Source: Nitrosopumilus sp.
GTDB lineage: Archaea > Thermoproteota > Nitrososphaeria > Nitrososphaerales > Nitrosopumilaceae
DNA length: 64,000 nucleotides
Direction of reading: 5' to 3'
NCBI GenBank assembly: GCA_965207075.1
Contig: CBDBLO010000002.1
Span: 2,048,001-2,112,000, forward strand
Shown here: piece after piece, positions 15,470 through 33,368 of the stretch
Layout: every line of letters begins with the position of its first letter
Position numbering within the stretch: position 1 is the stretch's first letter
Notes under the pieces: generated by a model
What the model saw: the letters and a program-made list of their open reading frames with translations, nothing else
Told to the model about the DNA's origin: nothing
The model's database searches: none
Position numbers and translations under genes: made by a program

Positions 15470-15530
15470 GACCATTGATGCGCCATATCTACTTAAGGGA
15501 CAAAAACCGGTAAAGCAGGCAAAGCATGTG

Positions 15531-16120: not shown

Positions 16121-16172
16121 GGTGTGGGTGGCGGGTGTGGGTGGCGGGTGTGGGTGGCGGGTGTGGGTGGCG
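16121..16172. repeat. 4 x 13-bp G-rich tandem repeat
   Basis: ggtgtgggtggcg repeated four times, just past the helicase stop. Confidence 0.9.
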
Positions 16173-16177
16173 ACGCG

Positions 16178-19100
16178 TTACATGTGGCTGTCGAGGCCGT
16201 CACCCGACTTGTCCTTTTGCGGTGACGTGGTGATGAACATGGCGCCCACGAGCTTCATCCCGTCGTAGTCTATCTCCGCGTCAGCGTCCGTATCCTCTGT
16301 ACCTGCCCCCACCTGTTCGCCTATGAGATCAATCTCCTTGATCAGCATGTCCGCGTCCCCGTCACGCTCGTATCCGTCCACAATATCCTGTAGCTCGACA
16401 CCCCACGGCCGCAGCTGTGCGCTGTTTATGACGGCGTCTGCGCGCCCGGCGCTCTCAGAGTCAATCTTGCCGGACCTGTACGCCTCGGTTATCACGCTTA
16501 TGAGTCTAGTCCGCGTCTTTTCAAACCCAGTGTTCTGGGGGGTTCTGGCGTACTGTCTCACCACGTCGTCACTGTGTATGATTGCATCCCTTGCCTTTTT
16601 GTCTATCCGGATCAGATCTTCAAACGATTTTCGGTGGTCGTCACCATCCATTGGAAGGTACATCTCCTCGTCTGGAAAGCACCGGGCCTTGTTGACAGCG
16701 TCGTACTCGTTTTCAGGTACATACGCCTCGTTCCTTTCACAGTCGTATACCACAAAGTAGACGCGCCTCTCGGGCTTTGTCCTGACATACGCAAGTACGC
16801 ACTCGTTCTTGTCGCCCCCTGATTTGCCACTGCGCCTTCCAATCGGCATGGCGCGCAGCTCGTCCAAACCTATCTTTTTGGCGTGCTTGGCAATCTCGTT
16901 GAGCGGCGTGTTCTGTGGCATGAGATCCGAATCCCTCTCCATCTGCTCCACCACATCTGACGCCGCCGAGCCCTTTTCGCCCAGAACTTTCAGCCGCTCC
17001 CTGAGGTTCCCGTTGTACTGGCGCGGGTGTGGGGTCTCGCCCAGAAGCTCCGCATCAAGGCCAATGACCTCGTTTACGGTGTTTATCTTGTTTAGCAGCT
17101 TTCCCATCAGCTGGAGTATGCCGTCAAGCTCCTTGTCCGGGTAGCACGCCCTTGAGTGTATGATATCATGGCGACTGCCCAGCCTGTCGACCCTCCCTAT
17201 CCGCTGGACAATCCTCATTGGATTCCACGGCAGGTCGTAGTTTATCACGTAGTTGCAGTCCTGCAGGTTCTGCCCCTCTGCCAGCACCTCGGTTGATATG
17301 AGAATGTCAATCGGATCCCCTTCCGGCGGCTGGCCGTCAGACAGGTTGGCCACGGGCGCAAACCTCTCAATGTACTTGGATCGAGTGTCGGATTTGGTGT
17401 CGCCCGTTATGCACTCGACCGTACTGTCAGGAAACATTGTCCGCAGCTCACGGAGTAGGTATCTGGCAGTCGAGATGTATTCTGTAAATATCAGGATCTT
17501 GTGGCTTTCCGACCCCAGCGCGTTCTCCCTTAATATGGCGTCCCGGACCGCCTCGAGCTTTTTGTCGGCGGTCACCCTTCCCACCTCGTCCCACAACCCT
17601 CTCAGTATGACAAGGTCCGACCTCAGATCCTCCCTGAACCTTTCCATGTCGTAGCTTGACCCCATCTCTTCCGTCTCCATGTTCTGCAGCTGTCCAAGGA
17701 CAAACTCGTCCATGTCAAAGTCGCCGTACGTGTCGTCGCCGTACGTGTCGGCCTTGTTCATGATGTGGTTGCCCTTTGCGATGATCTGGTTGAGTTTCCT
17801 TACCCTTACCATCCTACCCTTGTCTGCTATGCTGATGATGTGCTCGTACAGGCGTATCTTGTTTTTGAGGCTTGACTTTACCGCCTCCACGCTGCTCTCA
17901 AACATCTTGAGCAGCAGTATCACCTGCAGGTGTGACAGAACCATGTGTCTTGCCCTTTCGTCCTCCGTGGCCTCCGTATTGTACTGCTCCAATCCGTACG
18001 GGGCCATGGTGAGCCTGTCGACATCCTCCAGTATCTTTTGGAATATGTTGCCGTACAGGTCCGCGAGGCAGTAGTGGATCGGCGAGTACTCGTGCTCCGG
18101 GAACTTGATTTGGTTGCCGTTTATCGTATCTTTGGGATACACCTCCCTGATGTACGAGCGCGTGCGGCGGATCATTATTCCGTCAAGCAGCCTCTGGATC
18201 TTCTCAAGGCCCGCTGCCAGTCCCCCTTCCTTGTTTGCCGCGTCCCTCATGTGCCTGTACAGGTCTGGTATGCCGATGGTGCGCCAAAAGTATGAGTCGT
18301 CGCCGCGGGTAATTATGGACATCTGATAGTACAGATCCATTATCGAATTGTTGATGGGGGTAGCAGACAGCAGGAGCGCCTGTTTTGACTTTCCGATGGT
18401 CATTATCTTTGCCAAGTTCCTGCTACGGTTGGCGTTTTTTGACCTAAAGTTCTGCGACTCGTCTATCAGCACAAAGTCGATGTTTCTGTACTCGTTCCAT
18501 CTCTCAAGGGCGTTCTCGCGCCCGAGCGACTCCATGGTAACTTGCTTGTACACGCTTATTCCGGACTCTTTGAGCTTTTTGTCCCACATGGATCGCAGCA
18601 CTTGGGACGGGGCCACTAGGAGCGCCCTCCTGCCCTCTTTTAGGATCTTCTGGCGCAGGATCTCCATGCCCATGTTGGTCTTGCCTAGGCCTGTGGCATC
18701 CGCGATCATGGCTCCCTGGAATTCTGATAACACGAGCATTGCGGTGTGGACCGCCCCCTTCTGGAACTCTGCAAGCTCTATGCTGTACTGATGTCCGATG
18801 TCGTCGTCTGGCGTCAGAAGCTCACGGTACCTCTCAAATATCATCTTGATGTATACGTCGTACGGGGACGCGGGAATCCCGAACTTTGATGACTCGAGCT
18901 GGTTTATCAGATCCTGCTTGGCGTCCTTGGACTCGGCCCACATGCGGTCAAACCATACGCGGGTCCTCCCAGAGACGGCCGGCTGGTACAGCCCGGCGTT
19001 CAGCTCGTTGTTTGCAGTCAGTCCGCCGTTTGTAAAATTGCTGGAGCCGATGAATACAGTGTCGTCGTCAAATATGTAGCATTTGGAGTGGTTGAACCTG

Positions 19101-19483
19101 GATCTGCCAAGCCTCACCTCGACGTTATCCATGCTCAGAAGGCGCAGGAGCGATGCGGTGTCTGACATCGCGTCCAGCGTCAGCTCCGACTCGTCAAGGC
19201 CGCTCTTGAGCGATACCGCATCCTCGCCGCCCTCTTCGGCCATCTCCTCAAACGTCGCATCCGGAACCAGCGCCGGCTTTCCAAGCAGCAACCGCACCCT
19301 GCCGCCTCTCTCGTGGACTAGTCCGTCAAGCGCGTCCTTTAGCAGTGCGTAACCGGGCACGTTAAAGTAGCCCGTTGATATGTCAAGGTTGTGGGTGAAC
19401 GGTATCTCGGAATTGAGTACGTCGCGCATAGTGATGCCGTCTGTGGTGTTGTCGATTATGTCCTGCTTGATTTTTTTGTTCAT
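16178..19483 (-). CDS. PLD-nuclease / SNF2-family helicase fusion
   Basis: HSKCYIFD...IGSSNFT (HKD), ADATGLGKT, LIDESQN, LSATPINN, QRIGRVDRLG. Confidence 0.88.
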   Translation of the reverse strand: MNKKIKQDIIDNTTDGITMRDVLNSEIPFTHNLDISTGYFNVPGYALLKDALDGLVHERGGRVRLLLGKPALVPDATFEEMAEEGGEDAVSLKSGLDESELTLDAMSDTASLLRLLSMDNVEVRLGRSRFNHSKCYIFDDDTVFIGSSNFTNGGLTANNELNAGLYQPAVSGRTRVWFDRMWAESKDAKQDLINQLESSKFGIPASPYDVYIKMIFERYRELLTPDDDIGHQYSIELAEFQKGAVHTAMLVLSEFQGAMIADATGLGKTNMGMEILRQKILKEGRRALLVAPSQVLRSMWDKKLKESGISVYKQVTMESLGRENALERWNEYRNIDFVLIDESQNFRSKNANRSRNLAKIMTIGKSKQALLLSATPINNSIMDLYYQMSIITRGDDSYFWRTIGIPDLYRHMRDAANKEGGLAAGLEKIQRLLDGIMIRRTRSYIREVYPKDTINGNQIKFPEHEYSPIHYCLADLYGNIFQKILEDVDRLTMAPYGLEQYNTEATEDERARHMVLSHLQVILLLKMFESSVEAVKSSLKNKIRLYEHIISIADKGRMVRVRKLNQIIAKGNHIMNKADTYGDDTYGDFDMDEFVLGQLQNMETEEMGSSYDMERFREDLRSDLVILRGLWDEVGRVTADKKLEAVRDAILRENALGSESHKILIFTEYISTARYLLRELRTMFPDSTVECITGDTKSDTRSKYIERFAPVANLSDGQPPEGDPIDILISTEVLAEGQNLQDCNYVINYDLPWNPMRIVQRIGRVDRLGSRHDIIHSRACYPDKELDGILQLMGKLLNKINTVNEVIGLDAELLGETPHPRQYNGNLRERLKVLGEKGSAASDVVEQMERDSDLMPQNTPLNEIAKHAKKIGLDELRAMPIGRRSGKSGGDKNECVLAYVRTKPERRVYFVVYDCERNEAYVPENEYDAVNKARCFPDEEMYLPMDGDDHRKSFEDLIRIDKKARDAIIHSDDVVRQYARTPQNTGFEKTRTRLISVITEAYRSGKIDSESAGRADAVINSAQLRPWGVELQDIVDGYERDGDADMLIKEIDLIGEQVGAGTEDTDADAEIDYDGMKLVGAMFITTSPQKDKSGDGLDSHM

Positions 19484-22400
19484 TTTACATCATCAAATAT
19501 CTCGAGCGCTTTTTTTCTCATTTCACCGTAAAACTCCTTGAGATTGCTGTTGTCCCAGATTATTTCCTTTTCGTTCCACAAGTCGGGGTTTTCTCTGAAC
19601 AGCTTAAAGGATTCTAGTATTGTCTTGTATTCTTGTTTGTCAATGCCATATGCCTTTGCAACTATAACGTCGAGTCGGGCTGCAATGTCTATGCGATCTG
19701 CGACGGTCAGATATCTATTGGGAATATGCATAGTTTCTGCCAATCCTGCGAAGTCGGTATGACCAACTAGTAATTTAGCGGCCAGATTGGAGATCTCATT
19801 TTTGTATTTGTTTGGAATTGAAATGTCTGAAATAAGTGTGGAGAGGTGCACTTGTATAATCTGCCTTGAAATGAAATCAAAGGTAGTAGAGTTGAATACG
19901 CCACACAGATATACCATTGTGCGAATATACGCGTCATCTAACAATAGTGTTCCATCCCGTTTTATTAGAACGGAGCGGAGGGCATACGTGTGAAATGTTT
20001 TTGGTGGGATAATAGTTGCAATTGTGGTTCGCATATTTGTTGGACCTGATACGTCTCGAAATACAAGTCTGTAAGAATTGTAAAATTCTCGGTGCTTTTT
20101 AGCGTACTTTGGCTTGTCTTCCCGTTTGAGTCCGGCTCTCGACTGTGCGGTGAACATGGGTCTGGACCATGTGTGATTATATTGGTGAATCGTTTTGCCC
20201 TCATGTATGGACCATCCCCTGCCGTCTTCGCGGAACAGTTTAGAGTCGTCTGTTTTGCGAAATCCGTCAGCAAATGATATAGACATACCGTCTTCAGATA
20301 ATGCGTCTGCCAATTTTGGATGTTTGTATAGCTTGACGAGTATGTCACTAGTATTATACATGTTTTCTGGTATGGTTAAAGTTTCGGGGAACATTTCTCG
20401 AATTTTTATCTTGGAGTGTTTGCCAAATTTTTCCTTTTCTATGGTGTGGTCAATTAATGATGATAAGTGGTGTAGGTAAAATCCTACAGGGAATTCGTCC
20501 TTTTTGGTTTTTGAATTCCTGAGTGTCAGTAGCATGAATCTATAGCTAGAGTGAATGTCAAATATTTTTCCTTTGTTTTCAAATACGTATAACTGAATTA
20601 TCTCCTTGTTTAGTATCTCTTGTCTGATATCTGTGGAACCAGAGGATGCTAGAACCTGTGATGGGATAACCATTGATATAACTCCATTCTCTGATAATAG
20701 TTGGAACGTTCTCTCAAGTATCAGTTTTGAAAGATCTCGGGCGTCACTTCCTTGCATCTGATATGTCGATGCAGTTGAATAAAAATTAGTTTTTTCCAGA
20801 AATGATTTTTTGTATAATTCATACTCTGTTTTTATTTCGTCGTTTTGAAGTAATATATCCATAATTTCTTCCTTTTTGGCCTTTGTTGGAAGTGATTTAA
20901 ACGCAGGATAGTACGGAGTAAAGAATTCATCATCGAATGGTTTTATTTTATCCCATGGCGGGTTTCCTATGATGACGTCAAAACCATGCCGTGCATCGGT
21001 AAACGCGTCTCGCATCTCCAGCTCCCAGTGAAAGAATCTTCGTCGCTCTGCAATCTCCGAGACCTTGCGGCGTGCGTCCCGTATTGTCTTATCCTCGTTT
21101 TTACCGTACCGCCCGAACCGGTGGACAAACTCCATGCCGGACTTTTTTGGCAACATCGTGTCGTCGATTATCGATGCGGCAAACGCGTCAAGCACCCTCT
21201 TGGTATTGGATACGGATTCAGCGTATTTTTCGTACAGGGCCTCGCTACGCCGTACCTGCGAAACTGTGATATCCGGACTCGTCGAGACATCTTCCAACAT
21301 CGCGTTTGACTCCTCTCCAGGCATCCAGTCATCAAGGCTCTGATTCTTAACTCCATTCAGGTCATCAAGAGATACGCCTATCGTCGAGTCGCCCGTTCTG
21401 ATGTGGTGATCCATGTAGGTAAACGGCACCCCTATTGCAAAAGAATCAAGCCACAATGCAAGTTTTGCAATCTCAGTCGCGGTCGGGTTGCTGTCCACGC
21501 CGAATATGCACCTCTTCATTATCTTGCGCTTTAGCAGGACGTCATGCGTCAGGAGGTTGAGATCTATTGACACTCCCATTTTCTCCTGCTCGTCAACGAC
21601 GGTCTTGCGATCAACTTCCAGCTCTTCGAGCAGTGGATGCTTCGGATGTTTCTTCATGGTCTCAGTGGCCCACGAGGTCAGCTGGTTGAGTGCCTCGACC
21701 AGAAAATGGCCGCTGCCCATCGCCGGATCCAGTACTTGGATGTCAAGAAGATGCTCCATGCACGCGTCGCGGTTTTCAGGTGTCGGGTTTTTGGCGTATG
21801 ATGCGACGTCGCGCCCGATCTTAGAGGATCTGTCTGCCAGTATCGGCTCCAGTCCACGGCGTACGAGAAACTTTACGATCTCATCGGGCGTATAGTAGCT
21901 TCCGGTGCCCTTGCGCATCGCCAGGCCTCCCTTTGAGGCCAAGTACAGATCATTTTTTTTGTACGAATAGTTTGATTCGCGGGACGCCCGCACCTGCACG
22001 ATCTTGTGTCCCTTTACAAGCAGCATGACGTCCTTTTTGGCCTGCTGGATCGAGAATTCCATGACGCTCTCAAGTATGTTGCCAAGGTGTCGGACTCCGA
22101 GGCTTGCATAGTCGATGGTGTCCCCGTTGTGCTCAAGCAGGTCGCGCAAGGCGGGCACGAGCCAGCGGTTCTGAATGCTCATCCTGTCTATATCCGGATC
22201 ATGTCGGAAGAGGTTGCCGTTGTACTGCGGCAGGTTGTTTTCTGGACTCCCGTCCCGGATTCCCGCGAACATCTTTAGTAGGTGCTTCCAGCACGAGTCA
22301 CCGTCCTGCTCTTCGTGCATGTCAAGCTTCCCTCTGAGTCCGCGAAGCGACATGTTGGCTGCATACTTTTTGTCAGATATGGGCAGTAGGTTTCTTGACT

Positions 22401-23466
22401 CGGCATACGCCACAAACCAGACACGGTATATTATGCGCAGTGCGGCCTCCTTGGCAGAGGCAAGCTCCTCAGCATCAAAGACTGTTTTCATGTTATGGTT
22501 TAAGATTCCCTTTGCAAGATTTAGCAGGACACCATCCTGACTCATGATGCGCTCAGACAGGTTTTCCTCCAGCTGTGTTGCAAACTCCTTGCCCTGATCA
22601 AAAAAAAGGTCTATCCGAGGGCTCTTGCCAGCATAGGATGCGTATCCAAATATAATATACAGATACTGCAGCACCGTATCAGACGGCTCGGCAAGGTTCA
22701 GCTCAAAATAGTTGGTGGTGGATGCAGACACCCTGCTGGTGTAGAGTCGCCACTTTGCGCCGTTTGTGAGTATCACCCACCGGTGCTTGGAGAGCGCAGA
22801 TACTGCCCGGTAGCTTGGCACTACGTCGTCGCGGCTCTCACGTATGCTAAAGTTCTCTTGGTCCGTGACTATGACATGTACTGTCCCACTGCGAGGCTCG
22901 CTTGTCTTCCTCCATCCCAAGGCCTTCAAGAGACTCTGCGCGTCGGTGCCAGCGTCGCGCAGGGCCTTTATGGCGCCCTCGCTGCCGGACGCGTCATCAA
23001 ACACGCGATTTCTCAGGTAGTGGGTGGAGAACAGTCCCCTGTTCTCAAAGTCGTACGTGGTGGAAGGTATCGCATCTATGGAATCCTCAAGACGAGCAAT
23101 GAGTTCGATGTTGTTTTTTGCATCTCCGACATTGTTTGCCTCTAGTATCTTTGCTATCCTGCTGTATTCTGCATCGCTGTCAAGCGACACCATGTGAGTC
23201 TTGTCCGGGGTGCGTATGAGGAGTTTTTTGAGGCCGGATGCCAGTATCACGCAGGAGGGGAATCTCCTGACCACCCGCTTGAGATCTGTAACAGTCTTGG
23301 GGGCTTTTCCACTCTGCCCCCCGTCCACGATCAGTATGGGTGTGTTTCTTGACTTTGATGCGTGGTTGAGGCTGTAACAGTCCCAGCCTTCCAATTCCAG
23401 AGAGCGCCTTGTGTCATATGACACTCCTAGAGACGCAAGCAGTTGCTTGGTATGGGCCCTTGTCAC
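19480..23466 (-). CDS. Type IIG/Eco57I-like N6-adenine DNA methyltransferase with target-recognition domain
   Basis: GSYYTP, VLDPAMGSGHFL (motif I), IIGNPPW (motif IV), ILTNGAKWRLY; ATGA overlap with the helicase. Confidence 0.88.
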   Translation of the reverse strand: MTRAHTKQLLASLGVSYDTRRSLELEGWDCYSLNHASKSRNTPILIVDGGQSGKAPKTVTDLKRVVRRFPSCVILASGLKKLLIRTPDKTHMVSLDSDAEYSRIAKILEANNVGDAKNNIELIARLEDSIDAIPSTTYDFENRGLFSTHYLRNRVFDDASGSEGAIKALRDAGTDAQSLLKALGWRKTSEPRSGTVHVIVTDQENFSIRESRDDVVPSYRAVSALSKHRWVILTNGAKWRLYTSRVSASTTNYFELNLAEPSDTVLQYLYIIFGYASYAGKSPRIDLFFDQGKEFATQLEENLSERIMSQDGVLLNLAKGILNHNMKTVFDAEELASAKEAALRIIYRVWFVAYAESRNLLPISDKKYAANMSLRGLRGKLDMHEEQDGDSCWKHLLKMFAGIRDGSPENNLPQYNGNLFRHDPDIDRMSIQNRWLVPALRDLLEHNGDTIDYASLGVRHLGNILESVMEFSIQQAKKDVMLLVKGHKIVQVRASRESNYSYKKNDLYLASKGGLAMRKGTGSYYTPDEIVKFLVRRGLEPILADRSSKIGRDVASYAKNPTPENRDACMEHLLDIQVLDPAMGSGHFLVEALNQLTSWATETMKKHPKHPLLEELEVDRKTVVDEQEKMGVSIDLNLLTHDVLLKRKIMKRCIFGVDSNPTATEIAKLALWLDSFAIGVPFTYMDHHIRTGDSTIGVSLDDLNGVKNQSLDDWMPGEESNAMLEDVSTSPDITVSQVRRSEALYEKYAESVSNTKRVLDAFAASIIDDTMLPKKSGMEFVHRFGRYGKNEDKTIRDARRKVSEIAERRRFFHWELEMRDAFTDARHGFDVIIGNPPWDKIKPFDDEFFTPYYPAFKSLPTKAKKEEIMDILLQNDEIKTEYELYKKSFLEKTNFYSTASTYQMQGSDARDLSKLILERTFQLLSENGVISMVIPSQVLASSGSTDIRQEILNKEIIQLYVFENKGKIFDIHSSYRFMLLTLRNSKTKKDEFPVGFYLHHLSSLIDHTIEKEKFGKHSKIKIREMFPETLTIPENMYNTSDILVKLYKHPKLADALSEDGMSISFADGFRKTDDSKLFREDGRGWSIHEGKTIHQYNHTWSRPMFTAQSRAGLKREDKPKYAKKHREFYNSYRLVFRDVSGPTNMRTTIATIIPPKTFHTYALRSVLIKRDGTLLLDDAYIRTMVYLCGVFNSTTFDFISRQIIQVHLSTLISDISIPNKYKNEISNLAAKLLVGHTDFAGLAETMHIPNRYLTVADRIDIAARLDVIVAKAYGIDKQEYKTILESFKLFRENPDLWNEKEIIWDNSNLKEFYGEMRKKALEIFDDVK

Positions 23467-23604: not shown

Positions 23605-24618
23605 TCAATCCCTACCATCTGACTTGTTATCGATAACCGTCCAGATCCTCTGCAGCGGAATCTCCGATTTTAATTCCTCATCGAGTGAGTCATAGTTCTC
23701 CGTCAGCTCGCCTACAATTTTATCTTGATCCCACAACCGTGTACGAAAAAACGCCCTGTTTATCTCGCTATCGGCCGCCTTGGTAAGGCCGCCCCAAGCC
23801 ACCAGTATGCCATAACTTGCGCCAAAGCTTTGGATGACACCCTCCAGCTGCCGCAGCACCGTGACATTCACCGGCGCGCGTGACGACTTTACCTGTATGC
23901 ATATCTTCGGATCATCAAAGCCTAGCTTGCCCGATGCCGCAAGTATGTCCACGCCGCCGTCGGGTCCTGGCGGTGAGCGTTTCGTGACATATCCCTTTGC
24001 GATTAGAATTCCATCAATCAGCCGTGCAAGATTGTGTCCCATAAATTTACTCTCAAGAAACCTGACTATACGGTCCTTTGACAGCACCTCCAAGTCAAAT
24101 GGCTGGTTTGCATCATCCCCGCCGTCTACATCTCCTCTCCGTATGTGTCTGTCACTCAGCATATCCCTTGCGCGAGATTCGGCGTCCCTCGCATTGATCC
24201 GTCCTACTGTCAGGAGGGAGCCCAATGAATACAATATGTCTTGGTCAAATTCCGACCGCATTATGGTTTTTTTCCAGATTACAGGCCTCTGATGTAGCGT
24301 GTTCGGTGAGCTGTGGTTGTATTGGTAGTCGCCAGTGACCTCCCCTACTGCCACAGAAGGCTGCAACTTTAGCGGCGTCGCCACTAGGTCGCCTTTTTTG
24401 ATACTGTGCAAAAAATTCCATATTTGGCCTACATGGTTTGCTACAGAGGCTTTTTTTCGATCTGTATATGTTTGGGCATACAGATCCGAAAGCTGCTCCT
24501 TTTGATGTATGCCAGACAGGTCTGGCAGATCGTTCCATCCTATTGCAATGATGCCCTTCTCTTGTATCTCCTGTTCACGTTCGCCGTATTTGCCTGCTCG
24601 CACAAACCAGAAAGTCAT
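23605..24618 (-). CDS. Mrr-like (type IV) restriction endonuclease
   Basis: WFVRAG N-terminus; GPDGGVDILA...IQVKS catalytic motif. Confidence 0.85.
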   Translation of the reverse strand: MTFWFVRAGKYGEREQEIQEKGIIAIGWNDLPDLSGIHQKEQLSDLYAQTYTDRKKASVANHVGQIWNFLHSIKKGDLVATPLKLQPSVAVGEVTGDYQYNHSSPNTLHQRPVIWKKTIMRSEFDQDILYSLGSLLTVGRINARDAESRARDMLSDRHIRRGDVDGGDDANQPFDLEVLSKDRIVRFLESKFMGHNLARLIDGILIAKGYVTKRSPPGPDGGVDILAASGKLGFDDPKICIQVKSSRAPVNVTVLRQLEGVIQSFGASYGILVAWGGLTKAADSEINRAFFRTRLWDQDKIVGELTENYDSLDEELKSEIPLQRIWTVIDNKSDGRD

Positions 24619-25224: not shown

Positions 25225-26235
25225 CTATTCAGAGCAAATGCAGACCTTACATTTTGTGATAAATTTTGAATTTATTTTAATCTTTTTAGATTTCAAATTT
25301 ATAGGAAGCTGTCGGTTCTTCATTCTACGCTTTGCTAGTTTTATAATAGTTTTTTGCGGCAAGTAATACATCATTCCCCTAGCACCTATATAATTACAAT
25401 TATGAGATGCCAACGCTTGACCAAAGTTAAGCGCGTTTTCCAAACGCTTCCTACTCACTAACCTGATATTTTTGCAATCTTGTAGACAATGAATCATTCC
25501 AGCGCTTGACCAGTCACCAGATCCAGCAGCATCAACCAGATTATTCACTGGAAATGAAGATAGCGTTTTCCATCCCGTGTCTCTTAAAAAATTTGTCTTG
25601 TACTGTAGTCCACTTTCTCCCATTGTTTGAATTTCCAGTGGGACAGATATGCCAAGTTTTTCAAGACTTGTTGATCTATTGTAACAATGTTTTACAATGT
25701 CCGCAATCTTTAGACATTGCAAAAATAAACTGTTGGAGAGAAATTTTGGGGGTTCAAACACAATAATTGCATTGTGTTGTTTCAGGTAGCAAGCTAATTT
25801 ATATGCGCTAGGTGTGGCACGATCAAAATAAAATACATTTGCAGGAGGAAGTTGATTTTGGATGGTTTTCAGTAGCTTGAGTGTAAAGATCTTTCTTTGG
25901 GGTAGCCATATCCCATGTTCACACTTGAGATAAAACCTATGATAGGGCCGCTTCCCTGCAAAAACTCTTTCTATTATTCGGGGCGTTCTTGTGTCGCTTT
26001 CTTGCAGGATGAAGTCCGTGTTAGTTCCCCATTTTTCCATATCTTCGATCATTCGATTGCCCTCCACATCTCTACCTAGTCGTGCCATGGGAAATGTTCT
26101 CCACCCAAAACTGGCAAGTATAGTAAGTACGTTGCCACAAGAACCGCCTGCAAAAAAACTTGGTGGCTGTGTGTTACTATCGTATATGACATCTAGAGCA
26201 ACTAGGCCGGTACCCACACATATTGAATCAACCAC
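25225..26235 (-). CDS. PfkB/ribokinase-family kinase
   Basis: AGGSCGNV and VDAAGSGD signatures. Confidence 0.82.
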   Translation of the reverse strand: MVDSICVGTGLVALDVIYDSNTQPPSFFAGGSCGNVLTILASFGWRTFPMARLGRDVEGNRMIEDMEKWGTNTDFILQESDTRTPRIIERVFAGKRPYHRFYLKCEHGIWLPQRKIFTLKLLKTIQNQLPPANVFYFDRATPSAYKLACYLKQHNAIIVFEPPKFLSNSLFLQCLKIADIVKHCYNRSTSLEKLGISVPLEIQTMGESGLQYKTNFLRDTGWKTLSSFPVNNLVDAAGSGDWSSAGMIHCLQDCKNIRLVSRKRLENALNFGQALASHNCNYIGARGMMYYLPQKTIIKLAKRRMKNRQLPINLKSKKIKINSKFITKCKVCICSE

Positions 26236-26339
26236 GATTCAGCACCCGTGTTACCAAATGAATTCCGAACTTTTGAAGCTGCGAAGACAGTGTTAAAGAT
26301 GTTAATATCGAGTAGAATGCTACAAGCAGCTCGCTGATA

Positions 26340-27452
26340 CTATACATAACATTCACCTGTAATCCATAACGAAAATAATTGAGCAAAAGACGGATTCCAC
26401 CTACTAATCATCTCTCTATCCATGATATAACCATCTGAGGGGACGTATGCAATACCAACTTTTTCATTGTTTTGAATACCCTCTTCATATGCCACTAGGA
26501 AGACCCCCAATGAAATCAGCTTGCTTGACAAAGCAGAAATTGCAACTTTACATTTACCCAAAGGGTAGAGCGAGCGTCTGTAGCCGTGGATTACTCGATG
26601 AATTGCACGATAAGCCTCAAAAGGGTTTTGTTCAGCGGCGTATATCATATTCCGGATCTCTATATCAGACTCTTCCACAAGAAATTTTCTATTTTCTAGC
26701 ATGAGATCGTCTCCACGTCTAGGATTCTGAGATGGAAACGGCAATACTGGGCATATCTCTTTAGCCGATACTTGATTTTTAATTCGTATCATCTGATCGT
26801 ATCTACCTTCTCCCAGCACTGGAATCCAGATCATTACCTCATCTTCACCAGAGGTAATGTCCAAGTCACCAGTGAAACCATGCAAGTATGATGCTTTATC
26901 TACCAAGCCAGATTTTCTAATGGCTTTATCTACAGAAGCATCCTCTGCAACTACAACATGGAGGTTTATGCGTGAAGTATCCTTCAAAATATGTAATGTC
27001 TTACCTATTAGTGGCATGTATACATCAAGGGGCATAGACGATATATCAATTATTATGTCTGAGTATTTTTCAAACTCTCCGAGATCTTTGAATATTTCAG
27101 CGGCTTTTCGGGAACCAATGCGGTATCCATCATCAGCTTTCATTGAAATATTTTTGATTTGAATAGTGCCTACAGCATTCACTAATTTTTCCAATCTAGA
27201 TTTATTTTGTTGAATCTCAACGTCATATTTGGTAGATGGAGAATTTTTGCCCTCATCAAATTGGATCAAAATAAAGTCACGAAGTCCATAGCTAGGATTT
27301 TTCATAATTGCTTCTGCGCACAAGCACATTCGTGGATCAAATCCTTGGCCTAAAACTATCAGAAGATTTCGCTTTTTTGCCAAATGTGTTTTCCAGAAGT
27401 CATCGAATGAATCATTCTTAAAAAGCAAGTAGTCCTCCCAGCGCAATGTCAT
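26340..27452 (-). CDS. Hypothetical protein, possible tandem CARF-like Rossmann domains
   Basis: IIIDISSMP and VAISALSSKLISLG motifs; ATGA overlap with the upstream ATPase stop. Confidence 0.55.
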   Translation of the reverse strand: MTLRWEDYLLFKNDSFDDFWKTHLAKKRNLLIVLGQGFDPRMCLCAEAIMKNPSYGLRDFILIQFDEGKNSPSTKYDVEIQQNKSRLEKLVNAVGTIQIKNISMKADDGYRIGSRKAAEIFKDLGEFEKYSDIIIDISSMPLDVYMPLIGKTLHILKDTSRINLHVVVAEDASVDKAIRKSGLVDKASYLHGFTGDLDITSGEDEVMIWIPVLGEGRYDQMIRIKNQVSAKEICPVLPFPSQNPRRGDDLMLENRKFLVEESDIEIRNMIYAAEQNPFEAYRAIHRVIHGYRRSLYPLGKCKVAISALSSKLISLGVFLVAYEEGIQNNEKVGIAYVPSDGYIMDREMISRWNPSFAQLFSLWITGECYV

Positions 27453-29338
27453 CCAACCTCTTTCATCTGAATTTTTGGAGACATGAGATCGAGCCAATTG
27501 CATAGCTCACTAGGGGTCTTTTTCCTCCAACCCCCTCTACCTAAAGGAAGACCAAAATGCACGCATAGCGATCGATTCAAGTAGAAAAGAATAAACTCGT
27601 TACCTATCTTTCCCTGCTTTGCATAATATTTAGCTTTAAGCAAGTTGTGGCTGAGACAGGTTTGTAAAACTTCAGATAATTGTTTGTATTTTCCTGTTGG
27701 TTGTAGTTGTTCTATGAATTTTCTGTAGTCTGAATTTGAGATTCCTATGCCAGTAACGCCGGGGACATATGGTGCGTTAGGCTTTATCGTCTGCTCTATT
27801 GCAAAGTCTCTAAATTTCGTAAGAAAGCTCATCGCTTGCATACCGTTATGTATTCCTGCTATTCGTTTCCAACGTGTACTTGCAATGTCCTTGATTATCC
27901 TTTCTTGTGTCCTTGGTGAAAGACTAGAATTTTTATCGTTTTTAATCATTTGTGATTCTAGTTCGTCAAGTAATGCAGAAGCCACCTCTAGAAATTGATC
28001 GATGTTGTACGTAGCTAATTTCGCGATATTTTGAAACCCAAAATAGTATGGAATATCATACTCATGATATAGGAAGAATTCTGCTACGGCATCAAGATTA
28101 CCGTCAGAATCAAGCTCGTCATCCAGGGGGATGTCAAAGAGCTTAGTCTGTGAATTAGCTTCTTCTCGTGCAATTTTTATCTCCAGCACACGCCAGCTAA
28201 TCAGATTATCAAGAGTTGGACTAGATCTGGAGCGCAGGTCTGCTATCCACTTGTTATAGATGTCTGTTCGCCCAGATACTGTCTCAAGCTTGGCTTTGAT
28301 ACTATCCAAACATTGTGTAAACGTGGGGGTCCACTCTGGTGCATCTATCACATCTACAAGATGCTGATCTAGTGAGTTCGTTTCAACGTCTAAGCTAGCC
28401 ATGCTGGTTCTTTGTCTAGATACTGATCTTACAAATTTTTCAAATGATCGCGGCCGAGATTCCCAAAACTCTTCAAGAAACACTCCGTCGTATTCTCTTC
28501 CAAGTATTTCTGGAATTAAATCTGGCGTCTCAAGTGCTTCTAACCTCTCCGCAAGCCATATGGAGATTGGAAATCGTCTTGGCACTATTGCACGAAGCAA
28601 TGCATTTCTCTGGGGTTTGCGCAGCTCGTGCATATCATCTAGCATAACTAATGTTTTGGACACTACACTCTTTCCATCAAGAAGAATATTTTTTGGAGCA
28701 ATAATTTGTAAATGTTCAAAATCAAGCATTAGTTGTACGTTATCATTCCAAGGAACATCGAAGCGATTTATTAATCTGTTTATTTCCAGTTCTCGTGTCA
28801 ATGCTTGTTCATAGAGCTCCTTCCCATTGCATGGGAGATTCAAAGAATTTACTACTGTGCCAATTGGTTTGGATATGCGTATTCGTTCTAGATCCTGAGT
28901 CTCCAGACCATTCAACTTTAATATTCCAAGCAAAGCTGTTATAATTAGCCTGTAACCAATAGATGAGAAAAGGTATTGCATCTTTCTTTCGTCAGGTATA
29001 TCCAAATCCAATATTGAGCCGTATTCAGACAATCTAAGATATACTCCTAGAAGCGCAGGCCCGTTATCATTCATAGCACCGTACTTCGTTAATATCTGGA
29101 AGAGATCTCTATACTGAGATTGGCGCTGAAATATTTCATGCAACGAGTCTGGACTAAATAACCTAAGTAGCGACGTCTTACCACCGCCAGGACTGCTTCT
29201 AAAGATTACTGTTTTATTTAAAAAATAATCGTCACGCAACACTTCTAAAATTCCCGAGCCAAATAATCTTAGAAATATCATTTGGTTTTCAATTGTCTCT
29301 GATGAGCGCATTGTAAATGGATTGCGAGGTGTTTTCAA
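27449..29338 (-). CDS. P-loop ATPase (ORC/CDC6- or STAND-like)
   Basis: Walker A variant SSPGGGKTS, Walker B LVMLDD; NPF N-terminus; helical/wHTH-like C-terminus. Confidence 0.7.
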   Translation of the reverse strand: MKTPRNPFTMRSSETIENQMIFLRLFGSGILEVLRDDYFLNKTVIFRSSPGGGKTSLLRLFSPDSLHEIFQRQSQYRDLFQILTKYGAMNDNGPALLGVYLRLSEYGSILDLDIPDERKMQYLFSSIGYRLIITALLGILKLNGLETQDLERIRISKPIGTVVNSLNLPCNGKELYEQALTRELEINRLINRFDVPWNDNVQLMLDFEHLQIIAPKNILLDGKSVVSKTLVMLDDMHELRKPQRNALLRAIVPRRFPISIWLAERLEALETPDLIPEILGREYDGVFLEEFWESRPRSFEKFVRSVSRQRTSMASLDVETNSLDQHLVDVIDAPEWTPTFTQCLDSIKAKLETVSGRTDIYNKWIADLRSRSSPTLDNLISWRVLEIKIAREEANSQTKLFDIPLDDELDSDGNLDAVAEFFLYHEYDIPYYFGFQNIAKLATYNIDQFLEVASALLDELESQMIKNDKNSSLSPRTQERIIKDIASTRWKRIAGIHNGMQAMSFLTKFRDFAIEQTIKPNAPYVPGVTGIGISNSDYRKFIEQLQPTGKYKQLSEVLQTCLSHNLLKAKYYAKQGKIGNEFILFYLNRSLCVHFGLPLGRGGWRKKTPSELCNWLDLMSPKIQMKEVG

Positions 29339-29339
29339 A

Positions 29340-30476
29340 TCAATCGCCTTTATATCGCTGTACTCTAGGAAACAATCCCGGTATACTCTTGCCTACATTT
29401 TCATACCACAATATAGTCATTGAGTTGTTTGGGCAGTTATGGCTCATAATTAATGGTAGGCCACATTCGTCAAACCCCAAATATGGTTTAGTATGTTTGC
29501 CATTTTTATACTGTGATGTTACAATATCTTTATACTGAAAATTGTTTTTTAATATATCTTCCATCTTGTCAAGTTCATCGGAGCTCAAATTCACAGAATC
29601 ATCTATTTCTTGTATGGCCCACACATTCACTTGTATAGATGTGTGTGCAACATGTTTGCGCACTTCATCTCTAATCCATTGTATGGCACGAGTAGTAGCA
29701 ACATACAGCACCACACATACTTTTAATTTTTTTATATCAATCGCTTTTGCAATAAAATTAAACTTGTCGTTATCATTAATAATCTGCTTAAGAAATTTTA
29801 TTATTTTGCCTGTTTTTATTATTTTACCTGTCGCATTTTCCTTTTCTTCGCGTATGCAGCTTTTACCACTCGCAGAAAAGTCGTCAATGAGAAAAACTAT
29901 TTCATATTTTTCATCCGCTGGTTTTTTAGTAAGATTTTTTATATCACAATCTAACTCTTCTTTAAGTTCATCTGCCTTTTCTTCGGTAATCAAATATGCA
30001 GGATATATTTGCTCATGCTTAAGAGACGCAGATAGTCTTCTGAACAGATCTAGTTTGGCACCGTCGCTCAACCCTAAAAACAAACATTTTCTTTGCATTA
30101 TTTCGAAATTTACATTATTTACAATTTTTTTAATAGCAAACCTTTCAATGTTATATTTCTCAGCTACAAGGTTAATGAGATATGGCCGTATTGTATCCAT
30201 GTACGTCATCTGGATCAGGTGTTCAAGTTCTTTTGTAGATATGAATACCAGATTTCGTTTGATATATTCATAAGCTGTGTTTTTCTCTTCGGCGCTTGGA
30301 AATCGCTCTAACCAGAGTACCAAATTCCCAATGAACCTCATTCCAGGGGCAAATTGTTGATATTCGTCATATTTATAATCCGCAAGCATTTGCAGATCGT
30401 ATCTTTCTGTCGTTAACTTACTAGGGGGCCAGTCAATTACCTTTGTAAGTAGCTTTCTTGTTAATGAATCTTTCAT
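29340..30476 (-). CDS. Phosphoribosyltransferase-like protein
   Basis: PRPP-loop IVFLIDDFSASGKS; C-terminal YLGF...HNCPNNS...LFPR. Confidence 0.7.
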   Translation of the reverse strand: MKDSLTRKLLTKVIDWPPSKLTTERYDLQMLADYKYDEYQQFAPGMRFIGNLVLWLERFPSAEEKNTAYEYIKRNLVFISTKELEHLIQMTYMDTIRPYLINLVAEKYNIERFAIKKIVNNVNFEIMQRKCLFLGLSDGAKLDLFRRLSASLKHEQIYPAYLITEEKADELKEELDCDIKNLTKKPADEKYEIVFLIDDFSASGKSCIREEKENATGKIIKTGKIIKFLKQIINDNDKFNFIAKAIDIKKLKVCVVLYVATTRAIQWIRDEVRKHVAHTSIQVNVWAIQEIDDSVNLSSDELDKMEDILKNNFQYKDIVTSQYKNGKHTKPYLGFDECGLPLIMSHNCPNNSMTILWYENVGKSIPGLFPRVQRYKGD

Positions 30477-32401
30477 TTTGTGCCTCCAGCAACATTCAGT
30501 GTGAGATACCCATCATAAAGCACAGCGTTTTTAAAATATTCCAGAACCCCACTTTCTCCATACAGTCCATACGGCAATGTATTCCAACAGCTGTCAGGGT
30601 TATTACTCGTTTCGCCTACGCTTAGGGAGAACTTCGTGCTTAGCAGCTCGAAATCATTGCCCGGATACTCTCCTTTGTCACCAACACACAGAACCTGTAA
30701 TTGTTGCGGTAACTTTCTCTGAATATGGTCGACTAGACTTAGTTTAGATACTTGGCACGGTATGATGTCAACGGAATGGATTGACTCTACTATCTTTACG
30801 TTTTTGTGTTCTTTGGCTATCATATACAGGGTATGAGCCAAGTCACTTGGAAGATGGTCATTCGTTTGAATTGAGATCTGTTTTGGTCGTCGTTCGATAG
30901 TACAATCATCAAGCACGGTTCTGTAATCCAGATGCGACATAAATCCCATTAATGCTTCGTCTATTGTCTCATCATCATCTAGCGTGAAGTCATCACTTAA
31001 ACCTCTTATAATGCCGCCATTGTAATACCCGATATGTACTCCCGATTGCCATTTTCTTGGGATTATTTTTTGCAATACTTTTCTCACAGATCTACCTCGT
31101 CCTGTCGCTATTCCTATGACAATGTTGTTGCTTAGGAGTGTTGTGATAAGAGATCCGATCTCTTTTGATGGATAATCAGATCTATGTTTGGAATCACATA
31201 CAGTACCGTCGTAGTCAAATACCACGGCACCAAACTTCTGTCCGGAAATATTTTTTGCAAATTTTCTGAACAATTTTAGCCGTGTCTTGGTTTCAGATAC
31301 GTCGGGATTCGCATGGCCAAACTTTCTGCAGATTGCCATCTTTTCGACGCTGCACCATGCGTCAGGAACAGCACGTGGCATTGTGAGATGATATATCTTT
31401 CTTCCAAATCTAGCAACGTGTGGTTTGCCAGGATCAATTCCCTTTGCAGTGCCGAAAAGATTTACCGCATGCAATACTTGAATAATAAGCGCTATTGATG
31501 CAGCAGGTCCCTCATAACCTGTATCAAATCTTGCTTGTGGCATGTATTCCGGAATAAGTGCAAGAGTCTTGCTTGCAAGCTTTCTGCAATTCGGGTTTAC
31601 AAAAGCAACTACGGATGTCTCATTTCTATTTTTGTCTAGCCAGTTATGCCTACCATGCGCAAAGTTGCGATAATCTGCAAGCTGCACACTACACAGGCCT
31701 GCTTCAACCAATTTTGACTCCAAGTCTACTGCAGCAGTTTTGCCCCAATTATCATAAAGGCACACTATCGTATTTCGACTGATAATATCTGTCAATCTTC
31801 TCTCAAGATCCTCTGGTTTCCACTCTCCACATAGTTCGTCCAGTTGTGGCATCTTGAAGGGCCACATGTGTGTCTTCATGTATGCTCTACATAACCAAAC
31901 CATGCTGGCTATCAATGAGTTTGTTGCAAGGAAGCCGTCCTTGCCTGTAGGAATGTCTATTGAATGCACCAAATCTAGACTACTGGCCTTTTTTACTAAT
32001 TTGTTATTTGTACTTGCACACATAATACCGATGTTTTTAATTCCAAGACTGGTAGCTCGATCAAAAACTGATAAGATGTCTGTGTTGTTTCCTCCAGCAG
32101 TAATGATCATTATGGAACAGTCACTACTAATATTATCATATCCTAAAAATTCGAGTGGAGTTAGGTATTTTGAGATGGTTCCGGTCCTTTGGTGTAGTAA
32201 CGACGCGAAAGTTGCAGACGAGAGAGATCCGCCAGATCCTATCACGTACAATGGCATCTTTTTAGAACGTCTTACGAACTCTGTGATCTTGTCTATGGGA
32301 GTTGTCAATGCCCAGTTATAAACATCGGGAATCATTTTAAGATCTCTTGTATATGATCGTCCCAAGCTAGCTCTACCATCTTTAGATCCACTGGCTAGCA
32401 T
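30473..32401 (-). CDS. SIS sugar-isomerase domains fused to a HAD (Cof-type) phosphatase
   Basis: VIGSGGSLS, ESKLVEAG...NFAHG; HAD motifs FDYDGT, ATGRG, VSK, VGD...GND. Confidence 0.75.
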   Translation of the reverse strand: MLASGSKDGRASLGRSYTRDLKMIPDVYNWALTTPIDKITEFVRRSKKMPLYVIGSGGSLSSATFASLLHQRTGTISKYLTPLEFLGYDNISSDCSIMIITAGGNNTDILSVFDRATSLGIKNIGIMCASTNNKLVKKASSLDLVHSIDIPTGKDGFLATNSLIASMVWLCRAYMKTHMWPFKMPQLDELCGEWKPEDLERRLTDIISRNTIVCLYDNWGKTAAVDLESKLVEAGLCSVQLADYRNFAHGRHNWLDKNRNETSVVAFVNPNCRKLASKTLALIPEYMPQARFDTGYEGPAASIALIIQVLHAVNLFGTAKGIDPGKPHVARFGRKIYHLTMPRAVPDAWCSVEKMAICRKFGHANPDVSETKTRLKLFRKFAKNISGQKFGAVVFDYDGTVCDSKHRSDYPSKEIGSLITTLLSNNIVIGIATGRGRSVRKVLQKIIPRKWQSGVHIGYYNGGIIRGLSDDFTLDDDETIDEALMGFMSHLDYRTVLDDCTIERRPKQISIQTNDHLPSDLAHTLYMIAKEHKNVKIVESIHSVDIIPCQVSKLSLVDHIQRKLPQQLQVLCVGDKGEYPGNDFELLSTKFSLSVGETSNNPDSCWNTLPYGLYGESGVLEYFKNAVLYDGYLTLNVAGGTK

Positions 32402-33134
32402 AAAGGTTTGTTTATGGATATAGTCAAACTAAAAGCTAAGTCGGTCTAACAAACCCTATCGATTAGGTTAGAGGATGTCAAGGAGGACAGATGGGCAGAT
32501 TCGCCTCCAAGAATAGATCCGGTACTGGAAAGATGATGCAGTTGGGCAAAGAGACACCAAGTTCGTTTCTCGCGGGTACTCCTCCAGCGTACAACCTTAG
32601 ATCCGCCCACATGGCGCGACGAACTGTCGATGCTGTTCCGCCTGCGTCAGGCGGAAATGTGCAACAACAAGGAACAAGGCGCTGCATACGCCTGATCCTA
32701 CCGTACAGTCTTGCGCATTCGCGATGTGATGGGATCGAACTCCGGAAACACCGTGTAACAGGTATTGTCTGTGAGACACATCTTCTGCATACGAATAACC
32801 TGTCTGCTTCAAGGCGCATACAAGGATGTACAAGCTGCCAATCTCAAATCAGAAGGATAGTCGACAGCAGGCGCCATGTCGCTAGCAAGACGGCGATCGG
32901 CCGGTGCCTTCTGACACAGACTCTCCGTGGTCGCCTCACTGCAGCTCAGATAGCCGCCTTCTATTGTAGGCTAGCATGCCTGACGTCTCAATCCATCTCT
33001 TGTAGAGTTCGAATCGAAAGTAATTCAAACTCTACCAGCAGGGTTAAATGCCAAATCATCCCCAACCCATACGTTGACAGGCACGGGTTCAGGCGGCAAA
33101 GTTCGAATTAAAACCGATTCGCATAAGACGGAAA

Positions 33135-33209
33135 TGGGCCCACGGGGATTTGAACCCCGGATCTTCGCCGTGTAAGGGCGACGTCATAACCGAGCTGGAC
33201 TATGAGCCC
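33135..33209 (-). tRNA. tRNA-Val(TAC)
   Basis: GGGCTCATAGTCCAGCTCGGTTATGACGTCGCCCT-TAC-ACGGCGAAGATCCGGGGTTCAAATCCCCGTGGGCCCA folds as a cloverleaf; TTTAAA box upstream. Confidence 0.95.
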
Positions 33210-33368
33210 AAGGGCAGACGTTGCCAAAATCCATTTAAATCTTGAGTGGAGGCCAGCCCTTGCGCGTAGCAGCTGCCTCCCTAGGTTCCTGACGGCCGGT
33301 TGGCAGTGGTTACAGATGGGGCGGCCAAAGAAGCTAGAAATTCATGTATGCAAAAAGAGGATGCGGTC

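Follow-up and report, generated by a model that had tools for sequence, protein, structure and literature searches.

The 64,000-nt stretch of Nitrosopumilus sp. DNA analyzed here (contig CBDBLO010000002.1, positions 2,048,001 to 2,112,000; called the window below) carries on its minus strand five co-oriented open reading frames (ORFs) across 25225–32401. This cassette encodes a SIS-HAD fusion protein (gene 1), a phosphoribosyltransferase (PRTase) of the PRTase-CE family (gene 2; CE stands for conflict effector, 10.64898/2026.01.15.699771), an ORC/CDC6-like AAA+ ATPase (gene 3), a protein with two predicted CARF domains (gene 4) and a PfkB-family kinase (gene 5). On balance, the cassette is probably a defence of the abortive-infection type, directed against viruses or mobile elements, in which a CARF sensor gates the PRTase-CE effector. 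This defence reading is favoured by the conservation of the five genes as a unit, the mobility and genomic context of the cassette, the families of its components, the tandem-CARF fold, the predicted complex of the products of genes 2 and 4, and the preserved motifs.

The five-gene unit and its surroundings

Table 1. The five cassette genes; positions count from the first nucleotide of the window.
Gene	Encoded protein	Position	Strand	Length (aa)	Remark
1	SIS+HAD fusion	30473..32401	-	642	
2	PRTase-CE	29340..30476	-	378	predicted helical N-terminal extension
3	ORC/CDC6-like AAA+ ATPase	27449..29338	-	629	TTG start
4	predicted stand-alone tandem-CARF protein	26340..27452	-	370	counted from the ATG at 27452
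5	PfkB-family (ribokinase-fold) sugar or nucleoside kinase	25225..26235	-	336	GTG start

The junctions of the cassette were read directly in the sequence. Genes 1 and 2 overlap in an ATGA (30476–30473), as do genes 3 and 4 (27452–27449). The TGA stop codon of gene 2 ends at 29340 and is followed by one base (29339) and the TTG start codon of gene 3 at 29338. The ORF of gene 4 reaches 27503 and its conserved start is at 27452; 104 nt separate gene 4 from the GTG start codon of gene 5 at 26235. The GC content of the cassette is 0.35–0.42 (1-kb bins, 25–32 kb) compared to 0.57–0.69 over 33–64 kb. A tRNA-Val gene (33134–33210, minus strand) lies beside the island that holds the cassette. The downstream neighbours on the minus strand are an Mrr-like gene (23605–24618) and then a type IIG restriction-modification (RM) gene (19480–23466).

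An earlier note on this DNA, made from the letters alone, had described five co-oriented genes with these overlaps and the single-base gap, their AT-richness relative to the host and their position in an island by a tRNA gene with Mrr and type IIG RM genes as neighbours. The ORFs and junctions, the GC values and the located genes confirm this description. Its domain calls (HAD, PRTase, ORC/CDC6-like ATPase, CARF-like and PfkB) prove right by Pfam, PADLOC, profiles against the PDB and VIA-align, its SIS call is probable from the profile match, and the motifs it named (HAD, the loop that binds phosphoribosyl pyrophosphate (PRPP), Walker A/B and PfkB) are present and invariant in alignments of 33 sequences.

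Gene 4 was searched against about 5.8 billion proteins and gave 969 clusters at E ≤ 0.001 among 2733 candidates; nearly all of these relatives are unnamed or annotated as "hypothetical". A 25-sequence alignment of gene 4 was scanned against one genome per GTDB species; among 185,579 species, 131 stretches encode a relative. The best 80 of these 131 relatives were kept as loci, which are thus anchored on the CARF protein. With the window proteins as tblastn queries, all five genes are found in 73 of the 80 loci, and the seven loci short of genes all run off a contig end (L030, L034, L036, L047, L050, L052 and L058). Counted singly, genes 3 and 5 each occur in 79 loci, gene 1 in 73, gene 2 in 77 and gene 4, by construction, in all 80. 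Of the 73 complete loci, 72 keep the genes on a single strand in the order SIS-HAD, PRTase, ATPase, CARF, PfkB; L041 is rearranged. Short overlaps or gaps lie between the cassette genes in nearly all loci. Since the arrangement recurs in 73 of 80 loci of other genomes, it exceeds what chance would give. Clustering of 751 flanking ORFs yields no sixth gene common to the loci; the largest cluster covers five of them. The distance matrices of the five proteins correlate pairwise (r 0.69–0.88, 33 cassettes), with a Mantel p of 0.001 for the three pairs tested. Thus, the five genes travel together.

The hosts of these loci include Nitrososphaerota, Bathyarchaeia and Methanoregula among the archaea, as well as Myxococcota, Bacteroidota, Planctomycetota, Verrucomicrobiota, Cyanobacteriota, Chloroflexota, Bacillota and Acidobacteriota. 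Carriers that are not labelled as metagenome-assembled genomes include Corallococcus sicarius CA040B, Niabella hibiscisoli, Hymenobacter rigui KCTC 12533, Sediminibacterium soli and Ginsengibacter hankyongi. A tree of the concatenated cassette proteins (FastTree, 33 rows, Shimodaira–Hasegawa-like support only) mixes phyla inside well-supported groups and places archaea in at least two positions (at least two changes of the label "archaea"). The sister of the window cassette belongs to an uncultured Cenarchaeum genome and is only 46% identical. In many loci the GC content of the cassette is below that of its flanks (for example 0.33 compared to 0.56 in L084).

Within the host genus, a relative of gene 4 is present in 2 of 24 other genomes. 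One of them has three such places, the other one or two with pieces of the cassette (L003–L007, genomes G009 and G014). At some of them, all that is left is the C-terminal half of the CARF gene next to an intact-looking PfkB gene (48–65% identity). This pattern looks like repeated gain and decay of the cassette, and the PfkB kinase may outlive the rest of it. The phylum-mixing tree, the low GC content relative to the flanks and the full and decayed copies in the host genus show that the cassette moves horizontally. Only two loci on IMG/VR viral contigs include the ATPase gene; in L088 the ATPase is truncated, and L089 has no PfkB. They make no case for a phage-borne system. In L089, the place of PfkB after the CARF gene is taken by a gene for the PD-T4-1 defence protein (13210–14355, E 2.3e-168, NOV_C domain). 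Next come a Fic/DOC gene and a gene that matches DUF6088 only weakly, under the cut-off.

To sample the flanks, the two ORFs closest to the cassette with a length of 100 aa or more were taken on either side, using longest non-overlapping ORFs (a crude form of gene calling). The 76 loci yielded 272 such ORFs, of which 269 were scanned against Pfam (129 at E ≤ 1e-5, 140 at E ≤ 1e-10) and three, all very long, were omitted. The 102 flank ORFs without a clear Pfam defence label and 22 window ORFs were additionally scanned with PADLOC at E ≤ 1e-20. By our own tally, a recognised defence gene is found among the four or fewer nearest ORFs in 23 of the 76 loci. Examples of these genes belong to type I RM, BREX (PglZ, BrxL, BrxE), Wadjet (JetC, JetD), Lamassu (LmuB), AbiEi/AbiEii and GmrSD, or encode a CAP12/Pycsar-type TIR protein, Schlafen/AlbA_2, HEPN proteins, Zeta toxin, dGTPase, SoFic and PD-T4-6. 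In 12 further loci only mobile-element genes are present (integrases, recombinases, transposases, Tn7-like and conjugation genes). Four loci have a sugar or glycan neighbour (L013, L059, L069, L080), and the remaining loci have housekeeping flanks or no match. PADLOC matches 12 of the 102 flank ORFs compared to none of 18 host ORFs of the window, and no defence or mobile-element family is found in the 27 ORFs at 33300–64000. No cas gene occurs among the 269 scanned flank ORFs of the 76 loci. The gene set is kept together and in order, as the earlier note had proposed, and its expectation that homologues would not lie mainly in sugar or glycan loci is borne out (4 of 76 loci compared to 35 of 76 with defence or mobile-element neighbours). 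With the conserved set, these neighbours and PADLOC models that cover genes 2 and 4 alone, its label of a candidate defence system stands.

The components and a predicted CARF–PRTase complex

Gene 4 matches the PADLOC model "CARF6--CARF_CARF_CARF" (PDLC01910, E 1.8e-109) and has no match in Pfam or NCBIfam. The AlphaFold2 model (pLDDT 84.9) was searched against 48,161 chains with VIA-align. The top match is Can1 (6sce_A), a nuclease activated by cA4, with a Z-score of 14.9 and a root-mean-square (r.m.s.) deviation of 3.1 for 232 aligned residues (residues 46–358). Ranks 1–18 are all CARF proteins and include Csm6, Cam1, Can2, Csx1-Crn2, Card1, Csa3, the ring nuclease Sso2081 and Cad1; SAVED domains come after them in the list (Z about 7–8). 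Two CARF domains (residues ~46–200 and ~222–385) fill the whole protein and there is no effector domain. Judged by its model, the product of gene 4 is a stand-alone tandem-CARF protein. The homologues are 347–400 aa long in a search restricted to near lengths, and many residues are invariant across both CARF domains in the 25-sequence alignment. Foldseek placed tandem USP domains and the C-terminal domain of CCC transporters in its top ranks for the same model (TM-score 0.22–0.25, r.m.s. deviation ~18); the VIA-align result was preferred and these candidates were rejected.

The complex of the gene 2 and gene 4 products is predicted with a score of 0.91 (0.91, 0.92 and 0.91 in the individual runs), and the best of three controls scores 0.00. 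The 0.91 mark is reached by 58 of 80 solved complexes and by 2 of 110 mismatched pairs, a rough calibration since custom alignments were used. The runs share at least 94% of the contacts and the pLDDT of the partner is at least 89. On the PRTase side, the predicted interface is formed by N-terminal helices (residues 26–35, 73–101 and 113–119) and residues 288–295. The CARF protein contributes its second CARF domain (256–300), the C-terminal tail (380–387) and residues 23–26 and 40. Pro257, Arg262, Asp265, Asn293, Phe295, Trp380 and Tyr386 of the CARF protein are invariant and lie within this interface. We know of no solved complex of a PRTase-CE with this CARF family, so it seems unlikely that the prediction reproduces a memorised structure. 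The prediction supports direct binding of the CARF protein to the PRTase and would place the CARF protein, beside the ATPase, at the centre of control.

Gene 2 matches the Pfam family PF24390 (PRTase-CE; E 2.9e-23, 83.5 bits, cut-off 27) and four PADLOC "PRTase_III-A" models (best E 4.4e-13), which describe the effectors of type III-A retrons. The AlphaFold2 model has a pLDDT of 87.8. Its best structural matches are type I PRTases, with uracil PRTase (1bd3_D) at Z 9.2 and an r.m.s. deviation of 3.3 for 141 aligned residues; uracil and hypoxanthine-guanine PRTases match at Z 8–9.2. Foldseek returned no match for this model at E ≤ 0.001. According to the model, gene 2 encodes a type I PRTase fold plus an extra helical N-terminal part. 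Asp198, Asp199, Ser203 and Gly204 of the PRPP loop are invariant in the alignment of the window protein with 32 homologues. Equivalent alignments of 33 sequences underlie the motifs of genes 1, 3 and 5. Gene 2 therefore combines a PRTase-CE score above the cut-off with the fold and the DD plus S/T-G loop of that family.

Gene 3 matches PF24389 (ORC-CDC6-like; E 1.1e-19, 71.1 bits, cut-off 27) over profile positions 39–567 of 571. Gly51, Gly53 and Lys54 of Walker A and Asp234 of Walker B are invariant, so that both a score above the cut-off and intact Walker motifs assign the protein, at the sequence level, to the ORC-CDC6-like ATPases. Asn6, Pro7 and Phe8 are likewise invariant in 33 of 33 aligned homologues, which supports the TTG start. 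The nearest Atlas clusters all bear PF24389 and have a length of ~630–650 aa. No NCBIfam model matches genes 2–4, and the profiles of these three genes find no usable relative among the PDB sequences.

Gene 1 matches Pfam Hydrolase_3 (29.2 bits, cut-off 20.9); the SIS match of 17.3 bits is under its cut-off of 25, and that of NCBIfam HAD-SF-IIB (TIGR01484) is just below its cut-off (41.3, cut-off 41.8). The 33-sequence profile finds the double-SIS proteins 8eol and 3hba in the PDB (E 4.3e-7, residues 24–242), and the N-terminal 340 aa group with double-SIS enzymes of the GlmS-isomerase, NagB-II and FrlB type. Residues 362–601 match Cof-type HAD-IIB phosphatase and phosphomannomutase (PMM) chains. 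In the SIS loop GSGGS, Gly55, Gly57 and Gly58 are invariant and Ser56 and Ser59 nearly so. Asp243, His249 and Arg251 of the SIS part are also invariant. Motifs I–IV of HAD superfamily IIB are present, with Asp396, Asp398, Thr400, Lys553, Asp575 and Asp583 invariant and Thr433 nearly so. By these profile matches, the protein is probably an N-terminal double-SIS phosphosugar domain joined to a C-terminal HAD-IIB phosphatase or mutase.

Gene 5 belongs to the PfkB family (PF00294; E 6.5e-15, 55.7 bits, cut-off 25.8), and NCBIfam equivalog models all score far under their cut-offs. The closest PDB matches of its profile are fructokinase 5ey7 (E 1.2e-12) and ketohexokinases (~1e-11). Asp15, Gly30 and Gly31 (the GG switch), Asn35, Asp235, Gly238, Gly240 and Asp241 are invariant. 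The invariance of the expected catalytic or nucleotide-binding motifs in genes 1, 2, 3 and 5 counts for the defence reading. As a separate observation, most homologues of gene 5 have an insert H-R-F...C-P-x-C-G and a C-terminal C-x-x-C (about residues 99–112 and the C-terminus of gene 5). The pattern of cysteines suggests a zinc site that is atypical for PfkB kinases. The window protein has C-E-H-G where the homologues have C-P-x-C-G.

Proposed mechanism, precedents and alternatives

In the proposed mechanism, the tandem-CARF protein would bind a small nucleotide-like ligand and, as the complex prediction implies, sit on the PRTase-CE and control this effector. The effector may consume PRPP or attack the glycosidic bond of nucleotides, which would starve replication in the manner of abortive infection or growth arrest. 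The ORC/CDC6-like ATPase may act as an ATP-driven switch or as the sensor of infection. The SIS-HAD protein, as isomerase and phosphatase or mutase, could be opposed by the PfkB kinase on the sugar-phosphate part. Together they might either make the CARF ligand or dispose of it, or else drive the PRTase reaction forward by clearing its ribose-phosphate product. In the scheme of the earlier note, the ATPase would sense infection, and the enzymes would make, deplete or detoxify a signal or toxin of ribose-phosphate type.

By analogy with retrons, ShosT and PUA-Cal-HAD, the best-supported mode of action appears to be an attack on PRPP or nucleotides that is gated by a sensor. PRTase domains are the toxins of ShosTA and PsyrTA. 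ShosT is a PRTase fused to a pyrophosphatase-like hydrolase domain, which its authors liken to type III soluble pyrophosphatase, and its toxicity requires PRPP binding and the DD motif. The DprA-like ShosA neutralises ShosT without binding it. The cassette resembles ShosTA in having a PRTase-fold toxin candidate with a DD motif coupled to a hydrolase domain. In contrast to the single fused ShosT, its HAD domain is fused to SIS on a separate protein, and its PRTase has a helical N-terminus and a CARF protein, an AAA+ ATPase and a kinase as partners. Gene 2 matches no ShosT model in PADLOC at E ≤ 0.01. A DprA-like gene is neither part of the cassette nor conserved in the flanks, and a ShosA-like gene is 11 kb away in the same island. 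With type III-A retrons the cassette shares the matches of gene 2 to the PRTase effector models, but no reverse transcriptase family is found in the five proteins or the island, and Rfam recognises no RNA other than tRNA.

The PUA-Calcineurin-CE-HAD system (PUA-Cal-HAD) has a sensor that binds a nucleotide, upon which a HAD phosphatase and a CE phosphoesterase drain deoxynucleoside triphosphates in sequence (10.64898/2026.01.15.699771). The combination of a ligand sensor, a nucleotide-targeting CE effector and a HAD phosphatase is similar to the proposed roles in the cassette. It differs in the folds of its PUA sensor and calcineurin-like effector and has only two genes, with no ATPase, kinase or isomerase (10.64898/2026.01.15.699771). 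A HAD enzyme in the same system is also a feature of the CARF-HAD phosphatase effectors (Stella et al. 2025). Gene 4 resembles Can1 in having two CARF domains in one chain (Z 14.9). It differs from Can1 and the CARF effectors of type III systems in that no effector is fused to it; the effector is predicted to bind in trans. The cassette differs from type III CRISPR systems themselves in the lack of cas genes in the flanks (269 ORFs, 76 loci), and no Csm1, Cmr2 or SMODS was found in the host genome.

Also close to the cassette are the predicted conflict systems of PRTase-CE and ORC/CDC6-like proteins, as genes 2 and 3 exceed the cut-offs of exactly PF24390 and PF24389. The accessions of the two families are consecutive, and the ATPase model fits gene 3 end to end. 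Both are presumably families from Nicastro et al. 2023, and the CARF6 model of PADLOC is one which we take to come from Makarova et al. 2020. Anyone viewing PRTase-CE/ORC-CDC6 neighbourhoods would have seen all five genes. Because these Pfam families and the CARF6 model exist, the window cassette is a member of a predicted, experimentally uncharacterised kind. PADLOC-DB v2.0.0 has no match at E ≤ 0.01 for genes 1, 3 and 5 and matches genes 2 and 4 only with models under other headings. The literature found holds no description of the five-gene cassette and no experiment on it, although an earlier description of the gene neighbourhood may exist. The earlier note had taken the combination to be new and not yet a named system. 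This holds insofar as PADLOC models cover no more than genes 2 and 4, filed elsewhere, and no description was found in the literature searched; the claim of novelty is weaker than worded there, given the existing PRTase-CE, ORC-CDC6-like and CARF6 models. Added here are the measured strictness of the five-gene unit, its mobility across domains of life, the Can1-like tandem-CARF fold, the lack of a cyclase in the cassette, with none found in the host genome, the predicted CARF–PRTase complex and the occurrence in an ammonia-oxidizing archaeon.

Several observations weigh against a CARF-gated defence system. A recognisable neighbour of the defence or mobile-element kind is missing in about half of the loci, and several loci lie amid housekeeping genes (for example L011, L013, L023, L063 and L068). 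The flank tally itself rests on crude ORF calls, unequal E-value thresholds and a control from a single genome, and some of the tallied loci are related and share flanks (L012/L015/L016, L021/L022, L033/L035). The cassette is rare (131 relatives in 185,579 species). Damaged copies occur, with a partial PRTase in L041, partial genes 1 and 5 in L072, a partial gene 5 in L079 and gene 1 in pieces in L086; further decayed or incomplete copies are L088, L089 (without PfkB) and L004–L007. The kinase, isomerase and phosphatase are ordinary metabolic enzymes, and the best PDB relatives of the SIS-HAD and PfkB proteins act on hexose or amino-sugar phosphates, not on nucleotides. No cyclase or other known maker of a CARF ligand is encoded in the cassette. 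Searches for Csm1, Cmr2 and SMODS in the host genome (95% complete) gave no match each, and the control genomes were matched. Since no cyclase is found in the cassette or the host genome, the ligand would be made by the enzymes of the cassette or arise during infection. The CARF protein might also not be a sensor at all.

A home-made ligand is what a regulated biosynthetic pathway would provide. Here, PfkB, SIS-HAD and the PRTase would join a sugar phosphate to a base or an amine and so make a nucleoside or nucleotide of unusual type, by way of a PRPP-dependent N-glycoside, an Amadori-type aldose–ketose isomerisation by SIS and trimming of phosphates. The product could be a second messenger read by the CARF protein, or a nucleotide analogue that poisons viral polymerases, so defence would remain the function of the system; a nucleotide with an arabinose-type or otherwise modified sugar is retained solely as such a product. 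Four strictly co-inherited enzymes with all catalytic residues kept are consistent with this pathway, as are the similarity of the SIS part to amino-sugar and ketosamine phosphate isomerases (NagB-II/GlmS-like 8eol and 3hba, FrlB-like 3eua) and of the kinase to ketohexokinases and fructokinases. The absence of a cyclase would be explained, and the predicted CARF–PRTase contact fits product feedback as well. The cassette, on the other hand, holds no activating enzyme like PRPP synthetase and no glycosyltransferase, and if its enzymes only made a signal, no obvious effector except the ATPase would be left. Furthermore, the relatives of the PRTase-CE in retrons and ShosTA are toxic effectors rather than signal synthases, and locus L089 lacks PfkB. 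A biosynthetic pathway is unlikely. Slightly more doubtful is cyclase-free CARF signalling, in which the PRPP-dependent transferase, GlmS-like isomerase, HAD phosphatase or mutase and PfkB kinase of the cassette would make and turn over a non-canonical phosphoribosyl or ketosamine-type molecule that is read by the PRTase-bound CARF protein.

Direct binding of the CARF protein to the PRTase, as predicted, would also suit a toxin–antidote (addiction) module that mainly stabilises the mobile island. The PRTase would be the toxin, the CARF protein and the sugar-phosphate enzymes would neutralise it or repair its damage, and phage defence would be a by-product. ShosT/ShosA and PsyrTA are precedents for a PRTase toxin that a separate partner neutralises, several loci lie on integrated or conjugative elements (integrases, recombinases, Tn7-like genes, a relaxase with a coupling protein of a type IV secretion system) and decayed copies exist in the host genus. 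Five genes and ~7 kb are large for such a module, however. The AAA+ ATPase and the ligand-binding CARF fold point to regulated sensing, and the analogy is loose because the ShosTA antitoxin does not bind its toxin. This explanation is very improbable. The same low probability applies to a mobile metabolic operon, which would be no conflict system: it would serve to salvage or break down, independently of uptake, some rare sugar, amino sugar or nucleoside, and have CARF-like and AAA+ regulators. PfkB, SIS and HAD-IIB are classic carbohydrate families whose nearest solved relatives are sugar-phosphate enzymes, and some loci lie amid housekeeping genes, but the conserved surroundings include no gene for a transporter, a transcription factor or another catabolic enzyme. 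Sugar or glycan neighbours (4 of 76 loci) are far fewer than defence or mobile-element neighbours (35 of 76), the PRTase falls in a family of conflict effectors instead of one of salvage PRTases, and the patchy distribution across domains and the GC content below that of the flanks also argue against such an operon.

The current understanding of CARF sensors is that they receive cyclic oligoadenylates produced by Cas10. A tandem-CARF protein that is fixed in a five-gene cassette without a cyclase and predicted to sit on a PRTase-fold effector raises the question of what else CARF domains sense. If cyclase-free signalling were true, it would mean that CARF ligands include a further, new chemical class and that sugar-phosphate metabolism is wired to immunity in a new way, common to bacteria and archaea. 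The cassette also bears on the activation of PRTase conflict effectors and on why they cannot do without three sugar-phosphate enzymes as partners. Its presence in cultured bacteria, besides uncultured archaea, makes it directly testable. The defence repertoire of ammonia-oxidizing archaea has been little studied, and for this group the cassette marks a defence island beside tRNA-Val.

The host and the island

The host genome encodes archaeal AmoA (E 1.1e-116), which justifies its description as an ammonia-oxidizing archaeon, and the window contains archaeal genes for a thermosome subunit, TiaS and a diphthamide-synthesis protein. The Rfam scan of the window found tRNA and no other RNA. A direct repeat of 18 nt is present at 9385–9402 and 33130–33147 (16 of 18 positions identical, 13 nt exact), and one of its copies is the 3' end of tRNA-Val. 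The copies are 23.7 kb apart and the distal one lies about where the GC content begins to drop. The pair may mark both ends of an integrated island of ~24 kb. No integrase is recognised in the island; the ORF at 9383–11074 has no match in Pfam or PADLOC. Two overlapping ORFs on opposite strands (32478–32819, minus; 32491–33111, plus) lie between gene 1 and tRNA-Val. Both are putative and have no match in Pfam or PADLOC.

Besides the cassette and its Mrr-like and type IIG neighbours, the island holds an HKD plus SNF2 helicase gene and a ShosA-like gene. The helicase gene (16178–19483, minus strand) encodes a PLD(HKD)+SNF2 protein that matches PADLOC "HKD+Snf2" as well as DrmD models. It overlaps by 4 nt with the type IIG gene, which lies on the same strand and encodes a DrmMI-like methyltransferase-nuclease of 1328 aa. 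The two may form a two-gene restriction module similar to DISARM or type ISP systems. The ShosA-like gene (13682–14464, minus strand) is DprA-like (PADLOC ShosA, E 4.8e-68; Pfam DNA_processg_A), and the ORFs next to it hold no recognised ShosT-like PRTase toxin partner. The gene looks like an orphan of antitoxin type that shares the island with a different PRTase system.

Repeats are also present in this part of the island. The ORF at 15164–15913, which has a MazE-type antitoxin domain, contains a tandem repeat of 33 nt in eight copies (15512–15760). At 16121–16172, a unit of 13 nt occurs in several head-to-tail copies (reported as three overlapping copies of 26 nt). Finally, a near-perfect palindrome of 53 nt is present in two copies that are 294 nt apart (14597–14649 and 14891–14943).

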